DNA of 64,000 bases from Escherichia coli (lineage in GTDB: Bacteria > Pseudomonadota > Gammaproteobacteria > Enterobacterales > Enterobacteriaceae), in NCBI RefSeq assembly GCF_050320075.1, contig NZ_CP190018.1; one strand, 5' to 3'. Below, in pieces: positions 16,755 to 21,350 of the stretch. A program made the translations under genes and the position numbers. How positions within the stretch are numbered: the first letter of the stretch is position 1; each line of letters starts with the position of its first letter. Below the pieces are notes generated by a model. The model was not told the origin of the DNA and made no database searches. It worked only from the letters and a program-made list of their open reading frames with translations.

Positions 16755-16958
16755 AGTGAGTTGCCTTCTGAGTGGTAGTGTTGAAGCAGTGTAGCAGGTC
16801 ACTTGCTGTACAGAATGTGAATTTTTTAACCCTTTGCGCCAGCCGCTGCGATGAGGTGTATGATTAGTCTGACCTCTGTCCGGTTAATGTCGCTGAGCAG
16901 GTAATCAGAGCACAACAATTACGCCAACTGCTTAGGTTGTATTGTTAAAGGTAAAGTG

Positions 16959-18818
16959 ATGAGCAAAGGAACGACCAGCCAGGATGCCCCGTTCGGGACA
17001 TTATTGGGCTACGCCCCAGGTGGTGTAGCAATCTACTCTTCAGATTACAGTTCTCTCGATCCGCAGGAATACGAAGATGACGCCGTATTCCGTAGCTATA
17101 TCGACGACGAATATATGGGCCACAAATGGCAATGCGTTGAATTTGCTCGCCGTTTTCTCTTTCTGAATTACGGTGTGGTCTTTACTGACGTGGGTATGGC
17201 GTGGGAGATTTTCTCGCTGCGCTTCCTGCGTGAAGTGGTTAATGACAACATCCTGCCATTGCAGGCATTTCCTAATGGCTCGCCGCGTGCACCGGTCGCG
17301 GGCGCGCTTCTTATCTGGGATAAAGGCGGTGAATTTAAAGACACTGGCCATGTCGCCATCATTACCCAATTGCATGGCAACAAAGTCCGTATTGCGGAAC
17401 AGAACGTGATTCATTCCCCGTTACCGCAAGGGCAACAGTGGACGCGCGAGCTGGAGATGGTGGTCGAAAACGGCTGCTATACCCTTAAAGACACGTTTGA
17501 TGACACCACCATTCTCGGCTGGATGATCCAGACGGAAGATACTGAATACAGCTTACCGCAGCCGGAAATTGCAGGCGAGTTGCTGAAAATCAGCGGAGCG
17601 CGCCTGGAAAACAAAGGCCAGTTTGACGGTAAATGGCTGGATGAAAAAGATCCGCTACAAAACGCCTATGTGCAGGCCAACGGTCAGGTGATCAATCAGG
17701 ATCCGTATCATTACTACACCATTACCGAGAGTGCCGAGCAGGAGCTGATTAAAGCCACCAACGAGCTGCACCTGATGTATCTTCACGCCACCGACAAGGT
17801 GCTGAAAGATGACAACCTGCTGGCGCTGTTCGACATCCCAAAAATCCTCTGGCCACGTTTGCGTCTCTCCTGGCAGCGTCGCCGTCACCATATGATCACC
17901 GGTCGTATGGATTTCTGTATGGACGAACGTGGCCTGAAGGTCTACGAATACAACGCCGATTCCGCCTCCTGTCATACCGAAGCGGGCTTGATCCTCGAAC
18001 GTTGGGCGGAGCAGGGCTATAAAGGCAACGGCTTCAATCCGGCGGAAGGGCTGATTAACGAACTGGCCGGTGCCTGGAAACACAGTCGTGCACGTCCGTT
18101 TGTCCATATCATGCAAGACAAAGATATCGAGGAAAACTATCACGCGCAGTTTATGGAGCAGGCGCTGCACCAGGCGGGCTTTGAAACGCGTATCTTGCGC
18201 GGGCTGGATGAACTGGGCTGGGATGCTGCCGGGCAACTGATTGATGGGGAAGGGCGACTGGTTAACTGCGTGTGGAAAACCTGGGCGTGGGAAACCGCGT
18301 TTGATCAGATTCGTGAAGTTAGCGACCGTGAGTTTGCTGCGGTGCCGATCCGTACCGGTCATCCGCAAAATGAAGTGCGTCTTATCGACGTATTGCTGCG
18401 CCCGGAAGTGCTGGTCTTTGAACCTCTGTGGACAGTGATCCCCGGCAACAAAGCGATTCTGCCGATCCTCTGGTCGCTGTTCCCGCACCATCGTTACCTA
18501 CTGGATACCGATTTCACTGTTAATGATGAACTGGTAAAAACAGGTTACGCAGTGAAACCGATCGCCGGTCGCTGTGGCAGTAACATCGACCTCGTCAGCC
18601 ATCATGAAGAGGTGCTGGACAAAACCAGCGGTAAATTTGCCGAGCAGAAAAACATCTATCAGCAACTGTGGTGTTTGCCGAAAGTGGACGGTAAATACAT
18701 TCAGGTATGTACCTTCACCGTTGGCGGCAACTACGGTGGGACGTGTTTGCGCGGTGATGAATCACTGGTCATCAAAAAAGAGAGTGATATTGAACCGCTA
18801 ATTGTGGTGAAAGAGTAA
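16959..18818 (+). CDS. gss: Bifunctional glutathionylspermidine synthetase/amidase
   Basis: ATG at 16959 (MSKGTTSQDAPFGTLLGYAPGG...), 619 aa, matching recalled Gss/Gsp. Confidence 0.92.
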   Translation: MSKGTTSQDAPFGTLLGYAPGGVAIYSSDYSSLDPQEYEDDAVFRSYIDDEYMGHKWQCVEFARRFLFLNYGVVFTDVGMAWEIFSLRFLREVVNDNILPLQAFPNGSPRAPVAGALLIWDKGGEFKDTGHVAIITQLHGNKVRIAEQNVIHSPLPQGQQWTRELEMVVENGCYTLKDTFDDTTILGWMIQTEDTEYSLPQPEIAGELLKISGARLENKGQFDGKWLDEKDPLQNAYVQANGQVINQDPYHYYTITESAEQELIKATNELHLMYLHATDKVLKDDNLLALFDIPKILWPRLRLSWQRRRHHMITGRMDFCMDERGLKVYEYNADSASCHTEAGLILERWAEQGYKGNGFNPAEGLINELAGAWKHSRARPFVHIMQDKDIEENYHAQFMEQALHQAGFETRILRGLDELGWDAAGQLIDGEGRLVNCVWKTWAWETAFDQIREVSDREFAAVPIRTGHPQNEVRLIDVLLRPEVLVFEPLWTVIPGNKAILPILWSLFPHHRYLLDTDFTVNDELVKTGYAVKPIAGRCGSNIDLVSHHEEVLDKTSGKFAEQKNIYQQLWCLPKVDGKYIQVCTFTVGGNYGGTCLRGDESLVIKKESDIEPLIVVKE

Positions 18819-18833
18819 TACATGTTGTAGCAA

Positions 18834-18868
18834 CCCCGTACTGATTATGAAGAATAATCAGTACGGGG
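18834..18868. terminator. Perfect 15-bp stem-loop downstream of gss
   Basis: ccccgtactgattat-gaaga-ataatcagtacgggg, 16 nt after the gss stop. No U-tract, so it may be a structural or processing element rather than a classic terminator. Confidence 0.45.
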
Positions 18869-19109
18869 ATTAATCAAAACATTCAACATTTATATATTCC
18901 AATATTTATTTATTTAATATATGAATATATTAACCAGTGGAATACCTGTGTTTTGATTATTTCTAAAGGTTTTGAATGAATGCTTATTATCTGATACACA
19001 AGAAATAACACTCTTTTTATCGTTAAAAAATGATATTTCACTTTGCCCACGCCGTTAAAGTCACTGATAATGCGTCCGTTCGTAAATTCAAAATGGCGTA
19101 ATCTAATAT

Positions 19110-20609
19110 ATGCTAAATTTATTTGTTGGCCTTGATATATACACGGGGCTTTTGTTATTACTTGCTCTGGCATTTGTGTTGTTCTACGAAGCAATCAATG
19201 GTTTTCATGATACGGCGAATGCGGTGGCAACCGTTATTTATACTCGTGCCATGCAACCACAACTTGCTGTGGTGATGGCGGCATTTTTTAACTTTTTTGG
19301 CGTATTGCTAGGCGGACTTAGCGTTGCCTATGCCATTGTCCATATGTTGCCAACCGATTTGTTGCTGAATATGGGGTCAACTCACGGCCTGGCGATGGTC
19401 TTTTCCATGCTGCTGGCGGCGATTATCTGGAACCTGGGAACGTGGTTCTTTGGTTTACCGGCCTCCAGTTCGCATACCTTGATTGGTGCGATTATCGGCA
19501 TCGGTTTAACCAACGCGCTGTTAACCGGCTCATCGGTGATGGATGCGTTAAACCTGCGTGAAGTGACCAAAATTTTCTCCTCGCTGATTGTTTCCCCTAT
19601 CGTCGGCCTGGTCATTGCGGGAGGCCTGATATTCCTGCTGCGCCGCTACTGGAGCGGGACGAAAAAGCGTGACCGTATTCACCGCATTCCGGAAGATCGC
19701 AAAAAGAAAAAAGGCAAACGTAAGCCACCATTCTGGACGCGTATTGCGCTGATTGTTTCCGCTGCGGGCGTGGCGTTTTCGCACGGTGCTAACGACGGGC
19801 AGAAAGGGATCGGCCTGGTGATGCTGGTACTGGTGGGGATTGCCCCTGCTGGCTTCGTCGTCAATATGAACGCGTCCGGCTATGAAATTACCCGTACCCG
19901 CGATGCCGTCACCAACTTCGAACACTACCTGCAACAGCATCCTGAACTGCCGCAGAAGTTGATTACGATGGAACCTCCATTGCCTGCGACATCGACTGAT
20001 GGCACGCAAGTAACAGAGTTTCACTGTCATCCGGCAAATACCTTTGATGCGATTGCGCGCGTTAAAACGATGCTGCCAGGCAATATGGAAAGCTACGAGC
20101 CGTTAAGCGTGAGTCAGCGCAGCCAGCTGCGCCGCATTATGCTGTGCATCTCTGATACCTCTGCGAAGCTGGCGAAACTGCCAGGTGTCAGTAAAGAAGA
20201 TCAGAACCTGCTGAAAAAATTGCGCAGCGATATGTTAAGCACCATTGAGTACGCTCCGGTGTGGATCATCATGGCGGTAGCACTGGCGCTCGGCATTGGT
20301 ACCATGATTGGCTGGCGTCGTGTAGCGATGACCATCGGTGAGAAGATTGGTAAGCGCGGCATGACGTATGCGCAAGGGATGGCGGCGCAGATGACGGCGG
20401 CGGTATCTATCGGCCTTGCCAGTTATATTGGGATGCCCGTCTCCACAACACACGTCCTCTCGTCTGCGGTAGCAGGGACGATGGTGGTGGACGGCGGTGG
20501 GTTACAGCGTAAAACGGTAACCAGCATCCTGATGGCGTGGGTGTTTACTTTACCGGCGGCGATTTTTCTTTCTGGTGGGTTGTACTGGATAGCATTGCAG
20601 TTGATTTAA
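19110..20609 (+). CDS. pitB: Low-affinity inorganic phosphate transporter PitB
   Basis: 499-aa polytopic ORF matching recalled PitB; preceded by an AT-rich leader. Confidence 0.9.
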
Positions 20610-20618
20610 TCTTCCTGA

Positions 20619-20656
20619 AAATGCCCGGTCCTGGCGATCGGGCATTTCCATTTTTG
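20619..20656. terminator. Bidirectional terminator shared by pitB (+) and yghT (-)
   Basis: 9-bp stem (aaatgcccg / cgggcattt) with an 11-nt loop, followed by a cca-TTTTT run. Confidence 0.6.
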
Positions 20657-20657
20657 A

Positions 20658-21350
20658 CTAGTGATAACCACGCGCGGTCATAAAATCCGTAATCGCTTTT
20701 TCTGCATCAACCAGTACCTTTTCCAGTGGCTGATTGGCGTCGATATCAACCAGTTGTGCACCACCAAAGGTTAACTGTGGCGTTATGGCTATCTTTCTTG
20801 CCAGCGATTCCCTTTTGTGGTCAGGCTTACGCGCGCAGGCCACATCTAGATCGACATTGAGTTTGATGACCAGATCAGGTTTATGGCTCGCCATCCAGTG
20901 AAACGCTTTACGTTCCTGGCTTGCCAGCCATGAGACAAAACGACCGCCTTCAACGTTAGGTGGGAACACTGTACCATCGTAAGCGCCAGGAATTTGGTCC
21001 TGAGGATAACGGTCGGTTAGAACAATTAACCCGCGACGACGACAGGCAAGCATATGACGAAAGCGCAGTAAGCGACGGGCGACAAACGCTGTAATTACCA
21101 GCGCCGGAACAGGGCCAGGCAATTTTTTTGCTGTTTTCACCTGATTTCGTTCAATTGTTTTATGTAAGGATTTTCCCATCAACGGTAATTTTGTCACTGC
21201 ACGACCGACATTTCCGGCCTGTTTTCCTAAATGAACTCTTTCGGCTGCACCATATTTTTCGACAACGGTAATGAGATGTTCACACACCGTTGACTTGCCT
21301 GAACCATCGCTACCAATAACGGCAATTAATGGAGGTGTTATTGACTGCAT
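20658..21350 (-). CDS. yghT: P-loop NTPase (putative kinase) YghT
   Basis: 230 aa with Walker [10 protein letters not shown] near the N-terminus; paralogous to the next two genes. Confidence 0.85.

Follow-up and report, generated by a model that had tools for sequence, protein, structure and literature searches.

The gss gene of Escherichia coli is followed by a perfect 15-bp stem-loop, a real and selected RNA structure that belongs to an already described class and is not a new type of element. It is probably the 3'-terminal stem-loop that fixes and protects the end of the gss mRNA, of the class described for Rho-dependent transcripts by Dar and Sorek (2018). RNA polymerase would transcribe through the hairpin into an untranslated, A+U-rich and G-poor spacer, in which transcription would stop diffusely, most likely via Rho and possibly aided by the hairpin-plus-weak-hybrid context. 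The 3'-to-5' exonucleases PNPase and RNase II would then trim the tail until blocked by the 15-bp helix, leaving a uniform end 3-5 nt beyond the stem, so that the helix would set the 3' end of the gss mRNA and protect the message. Positions below refer to the window, i.e. the whole 64-kb stretch of E. coli DNA that was analysed, and the features are collected in the table.

Table. Features of the gss-pitB region in the window, with the basis of each assignment.
Feature	Position	Strand	Basis
gss transcription start site	16871	+	projected from K-12 NC_000913.3 3138610, SMRT-Cappable-seq
gss CDS, bifunctional glutathionylspermidine synthetase/amidase, 619 aa	16959..18818	+	ORF list, RefSeq annotation of matching E. 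coli records, K-12 mapping
Hairpin 5' arm, CCCCGTACTGATTAT = CCCCGUACUGAUUAU	18834..18848	+	sequence
Hairpin loop, GAAGA	18849..18853	+	sequence
Hairpin 3' arm, ATAATCAGTACGGGG = AUAAUCAGUACGGGG	18854..18868	+	sequence; covariation
Steady-state 3' end of full-length primary gss transcripts	18872	+	projected from K-12 3136609
A+T-rich, G-poor untranslated spacer; putative zone of actual transcription stop (Rho and/or leaky termination) before trimming to the hairpin	18869..19008	+	composition, read-through sizes, 55-84% identity among Escherichia species
pitB CDS	19110..20609	+	ORF list, RefSeq annotation of matching records

The arms are complementary at 15/15 positions (18834-18868), and the base of the stem holds a concentration of G-C pairs, of which the 15-bp stem has 6. 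The stem sets in at the 16th nt after the stop codon of gss (TAA, 18816-18818). This gap of 15 nt would place it just outside the footprint of a ribosome terminating at that codon, and the stem should thus be able to form despite the ribosome. The folding energy is -24.8 to -25.9 kcal/mol for the hairpin alone and -28.5 kcal/mol for its 86-nt context (z = -6.2, with 0/200 shuffles as stable). With loops of 3-8 nt allowed, no other perfect stem in the entire window is as long. In shuffled windows (n=10) the longest stems measured 7-12 bp, and 3.6e-4 stems of at least 15 bp are expected analytically per 64-kb window. The preliminary description, which had reported a perfect 15-bp stem with a 5-nt loop and judged it too strong to be accidental, was right on both points.

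It was right also in finding no U-tract. The 8 nt after the stem (ATTAATCA) contain 3 T, none of them at the first position, and 7/8 are A or U; there is neither an A-tract before the stem nor a U-rich tract after it, and a terminator consensus scan made no call at the hairpin. The T-tail weight is 1.07, vs 2.6-5.0 for three canonical T-run tails that follow gss in other genera (L013, L023 and L043). The minus strand likewise lacks a T-run beside the stem, and the neighbouring genes are co-directional; a bidirectional terminator was rejected on these grounds.

The hairpin occurs at a single locus. The arm sequence has no second copy in the window, and a 51-nt query found one hairpin locus per genome in 5,402 complete E. 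coli genomes, so that the search for the same dyad elsewhere in the genome, proposed in the preliminary description, gave no second site in either set. Genomes with a perfect palindrome gave 2 places and those with imperfect alleles exactly 1 place at E<=10, the second place presumably being the same locus read on the opposite strand. A REP element was rejected in view of the single copy and the lack of a REP consensus. Nothing is annotated in RefSeq under the hairpin match in the E. coli genomes. In Rfam 15 (E<=10), the best overlapping matches scored 19.8-22 bits against thresholds of 40-100, and are sub-threshold, snoRNA- or sRNA-like noise.

Published 3' end mapping in K-12 places the end of gss transcripts at the hairpin. 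SMRT-Cappable-seq, which sequences full-length 5'-triphosphate transcripts, identified a transcription unit (NC_000913.3 3136609-3138610, reverse) that covers b2988 (gss) only, with its end typed 'novelTTS' (PMC6131387, Supplementary Data 1). In M9 medium, 120 reads were counted at the TSS, of which 76 end at the TTS, 6 pass through and 3 end within 50 bp; in rich medium the corresponding numbers were 35, 26, 0 and 1 (PMC6131387). Thus 76/85 (M9) and 26/27 (rich) of the reads that reach the site end there and 0-5% pass, with a median read-through past the gss TTS of 212 nt in M9 and 96 nt in rich medium (PMC6131387). The gss mRNA is therefore monocistronic, its ends coincide with the hairpin, and read-through is low. 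The authors of that study take their ends as genuine termination sites (PMC6131387). We found no gss, pitB or 31366xx entry among the rows listed in the supplements of Adams 2021 and TERMITe 2025, and a full-text literature search returned nothing relevant linking gss or pitB to Rho or termination.

Read directly from NC_000913.3, the K-12 stem lies at 3136647-3136613 on the minus strand. The 501-nt stretch round the hairpin is 100% identical to that of E. coli strain 746 and 97.8% identical to that of K-12, and the projection from K-12 to the window is collinear, without indels and with 49 mismatches in 2401 nt. The gss RNA ends in ...ACGGGG-AUUA-3', 4 nt past the last G of the stem, with an uncertainty of about 2 nt, as an A-tail is added in the protocol and the genomic sequence there is AA. 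Intrinsic termination releases the transcript 7-9 nt after the stem, and a trimmed end is thus the simplest reading of the end at +4. The absence of a U-tract and this position both bear out the earlier judgement that the hairpin is not a canonical intrinsic terminator. Just upstream of the projected TSS, there is a TATGAT -10-like hexamer with a preceding TG (GGTGTATGATTAGTCTG; window 16826-16876).

In the minimum free energy fold of the 86-nt context, the hairpin is enclosed by an outer helix (18818-18827 / 18884-18893, AUACAUGUUG / CAACAUUUAU); E. albertii has another outer pairing (ACAUGU / ACAUGU). This helix was rejected as part of the element since its 3' arm lies past the mapped RNA end, and it could be relevant only in nascent or read-through RNA.

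The structure is kept across Escherichia. The DNA palindrome is perfect in most E. coli genomes, 4035/5402 of which match at >=99% identity. We aligned 11 distinct Escherichia versions, comprising alleles from E. coli genomes and one representative genome per species. In the proposed helix 95.8% of the cells form standard pairs, as compared to 27-46% when the partners are slid by 1-3 columns. Two pairs show compensatory double changes. One, from A-U to G-C, is seen in E. whittamii and Escherichia sp. E1V33; the other, from U-A to C-G, is carried by E. coli SCU-105 and CB209. E. coli strain G5 has the intermediate U.G at the latter pair, so that all stages of this compensatory path segregate within E. 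coli. The covariation comprises few independent events in closely related genomes, and the 5/500 runs in which a shuffle control matched its score are not to be read as a probability. Within the inner 13 pairs there is one unpaired cell, at the innermost (loop-closing) pair of E. albertii, accompanied by a 1-nt loop deletion, and the remaining unpaired cells are all confined to the outermost two pairs. Identity to the other Escherichia species is 83-97% in the hairpin vs 55-78% in the next 40 nt, and the tails after the stem are neither U-rich nor conserved (AUUAAUCA in the window, and AAUAAUCA, AAAAUCGU and AGCAUGUC; G/C in E. albertii). The alignment indicates that the maintained part is the helix and not a terminator tail. 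The hairpin withstood both refuting conditions set in the preliminary description, as transcript ends fall at it and related Escherichia genomes keep it.

The direction of the remaining changes distinguishes between RNA and DNA. Five more pairs vary one-sidedly, and all six events are + strand transitions, either C-to-T or A-to-G, each of which leaves a G.U pair in the gss-sense RNA but mismatches C with A in the antisense RNA or the DNA dyad. There are 15 stem sites at which a transition keeps + strand pairing and 15 at which pairing is lost, and in a sign test on this basis the 6:0 split has a one-sided probability of about 0.016. The hairpin of the + strand retains a dG of -20.4 to -27.9 kcal/mol across all alleles, while that of the minus strand weakens to -15.5 to -19.4 kcal/mol in the wobble alleles. 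Because all one-sided changes keep G.U pairing on the gss-sense RNA only, selection acts on the + strand RNA and not on the DNA dyad.

The spacer between the hairpin and pitB (18869-19109) is 241 nt long with 73% A+T (A 35%, T 38%, C 15%, G 12%), and the GC content is 29% in the intergenic region vs 52% in gss and pitB. Its first 80 nt contain 5 G, placing them in the lowest 0.2% of 80-mers in the window, and 10 C (12.5%), giving a C/G ratio of 2. The corresponding C/G counts in sister species are 11/7, 9/11, 12/10 and 9/14, with no bias of C over G in E. whittamii or Escherichia sp. E1V33 and a weak one in E. albertii. The spacer shows no evident conserved rut site, and its composition argues at most weakly for one.

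The preliminary description had called the spacer an AT-rich 240-bp leader before pitB, of which the length and composition hold up but the term leader finds no support. The sole promoter-like match upstream of pitB in a promoter scan lies at 19043-19071 (TTGCCC-17-GATAAT), and most of the 241-nt spacer is therefore probably upstream of the pitB promoter. The 100 nt before the pitB start (19009-19109) are 91-98% identical across Escherichia species, i.e. conserved like coding sequence, and the preceding 140 nt are 55-84% identical; the last ~25 nt before pitB resemble the region upstream of pitA (primer sequences, PMC6469041). The segment 19009-19109 is probably the pitB promoter and 5' UTR.

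According to a published description, PitB is not normally functional in wild-type E. coli (PMC6469041). The pitB of E. coli strain 119 (NZ_CP028662.1, locus 911-1501) carries a pseudogene annotation, its C-terminus being missing, which fits a dispensable pitB. An imperfect 15-bp hairpin (TGAAAATGCCCGGTC / GATCGGGCATTTCCA, 20616-20650) directly follows the pitB stop codon, between pitB and the convergent minus-strand ORF 20658-21350 (yghT), and is likely a shared or bidirectional terminator.

Two independent IS1 insertions at the hairpin or spacer were found among about 15 sampled alleles, and the A+T-rich spacer seems to attract IS1. In E. coli STEC388 (NZ_CP041425.1, locus 1837-2534), IS1A is inserted ~220 nt downstream of the hairpin (window ~19040), and the sequence lacks pitB and continues into a truncated yghO. 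In E. coli 360D-1 (NZ_CM180504.1, locus ~194-336), IS1B is inserted inside the 3' arm (window ~18862) and the helix is destroyed. The latter strain is a natural hairpin knock-out, which could be used to test the effect of the hairpin on gss mRNA.

Several other readings of the site were weighed. The sharp and efficient end (76/85 reads in M9 and 26/27 in rich medium) would also suit a non-canonical, U-tract-poor intrinsic terminator, in which the hairpin and a weak A/U-rich hybrid (AUUAAUCA) would bring about release without Rho and minor nibbling would yield the end at +4. The A/U-rich composition of the 8 nt after the stem fits this possibility, gss ends in a T-run hairpin in 35/80 other species, making an intrinsic terminator a common solution at this gene end, and Dar and Sorek mention possible mixed or transitional terminators (PMC6061677). 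It is a conceivable but doubtful reading, considering that the 3 U of the tail, none in first place, failed the terminator rule with a low T-tail weight, that the tail is unconserved among Escherichia species and is G/C in E. albertii, and that an end at +4 is too near the stem for a primary release point. Replacement of the U-tract abolishes intrinsic termination by E. coli RNA polymerase. A truly U-tract-independent intrinsic terminator, with the 15-bp helix and AUUAAUCA reaching about 90-96% efficiency without Rho, would contradict this accepted requirement in E. coli if true, and we consider it very unlikely. The hairpin might instead be an exonuclease barrier on ends made by RNase E, such that the spacer is cut, the hairpin stabilises the gss fragment, and no dedicated termination takes place nearby. 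This route would rely on the same barrier function as the trimmed Rho-dependent end preferred here, and is consistent with the A/U-rich, unstructured spacer and the existence of read-through reads of 96-212 nt; it is nevertheless unlikely given that 0-5% of the reads pass the site, that no unit with pitB (b2987) is among the SMRT-Cappable-seq units listed (PMC6131387), and that RNase E, as the authors of that study argue, acts poorly on 5'-triphosphate transcripts (PMC6131387).

A role at the DNA level, as a regulator binding site for pitB or gss, a cruciform or a recombination site, is suggested by the position upstream of pitB and by the palindrome being perfect in most E. coli genomes. All six one-sided substitutions (6/6) break the symmetry and keep the RNA G.U pair on one strand only, which contradicts the protein-binding dyad put forward in the preliminary description. 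Typical regulator sites are far shorter than 35 bp with 15-bp arms. Since, in addition, the element is single-copy with no second genomic site, transcript ends map to the hairpin, and no PhoB binding was detected at pitB (PMC10294691), such a role is most improbable. The perfect, uninterrupted A-form helix at an mRNA end could likewise be a site of processing by RNase III or the terminator hairpin of a small RNA derived from the 3'UTR, but the mapped 3' end lies outside the intact stem and not within it, there is no U-tail for Hfq and no Rfam match, and the 15 nt between stop and stem leave no room for a seed region. Typical RNase III substrates are also longer than 15 bp, and we give this reading hardly any weight. 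Among the roles proposed in the preliminary description, which included a Rho-assisted pause site, that of an RNA-stability element is favoured by the conservation of the gss-sense RNA and by the 3' end 4 nt past the stem, with the stabilising effect itself being presumed.

To place the hairpin in a wider context, we retrieved gss loci from 80 species (L010-L085), 76 of them outside Escherichia, and scanned the 120 nt after the gss stop by rule. Among these 80 species, pitB follows gss only in Escherichia; the 3' flank of gss is unrelated in the 76 non-Escherichia species, which makes the end of gss a synteny breakpoint. In these species nothing matches the window over the 2.5 kb that follow gss, bar a weak match in L062/L072 to an unrelated part of the window around 10.7-11.1 kb. 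Most of the species nevertheless have some hairpin after the stop codon. A stem with a T-run follows gss in 35/80 species, and a perfect stem of >=7 bp without a T-run in 21/80, including Salmonella enterica subsp. arizonae and diarizonae and some Citrobacter. The other 24/80 fit neither strict rule; in several of them, those of Klebsiella and Raoultella included, imperfect stems can be made out by eye. Across the Enterobacteriaceae, the end of gss is thus a site of free exchange between U-tract and U-tract-less hairpins, the turnover that Dar and Sorek predicted (PMC6061677).

The finding places the 3' boundary of the gss unit at a site that is unannotated in RefSeq and was previously only one 'novelTTS' line in a high-throughput table. 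The arrangement of hairpin plus spacer goes together with almost no gss transcription entering the poorly expressed pitB, and insulation of pitB may be a function of the element. The segregating U-A, U.G and C-G alleles provide a clean within-species case of compensatory evolution in an mRNA 3' hairpin. The gss hairpin opens no new question of mechanism, and its practical value is modest.

Three known systems invite comparison. REP/BIME elements are mRNA 3' stabilisers (e.g. in malE-malF), are present in hundreds of copies and are often associated with downstream Rho-dependent termination. The gss hairpin resembles them in being a transcribed palindrome proposed to block 3'-to-5' exonucleases, but is found at one locus per genome and lacks the REP consensus; REP/BIME elements are discussed in PMC6061677. 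The canonical intrinsic terminators after gss in Citrobacter, Enterobacter and Lelliottia (AAAAGCCGGAG...CTCCGGCTTTTTT) share with the E. coli hairpin their position 5-60 nt after the stop codon, a similar free energy, a G+C-rich stem base and a sharp transcript end. In contrast to these, the E. coli hairpin has neither a U-tract nor an upstream A-tract, and the 3' end is at +4 and not at +7 to +9; the two are not homologous, the 3' flank having been replaced at the synteny break. Stem-loops at the ends of Rho-dependent transcripts were reportedly hypothesised by Peters et al. 2012, and trp t' (Mott et al. 1985) is said to be the classic case. Dar and Sorek 2018 showed that Rho-dependent E. 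coli transcripts have precise steady-state 3' ends directly after stable stem-loops without U-tracts, with a mild bias of C over G downstream, and that PNPase and RNase II trim from distal, diffuse termination points back to the stem (PMC6061677). The gss site differs from this class in that the downstream region is A+T-rich and not clearly C-rich, the 15-bp stem is exceptional in its length and perfection, and Rho dependence and trimming by PNPase/RNase II are features that we infer. Like the members of this class, gss has a stable stem-loop without a U-tract immediately upstream of a precise steady-state 3' end, a G-poor downstream region and a monocistronic mRNA end.
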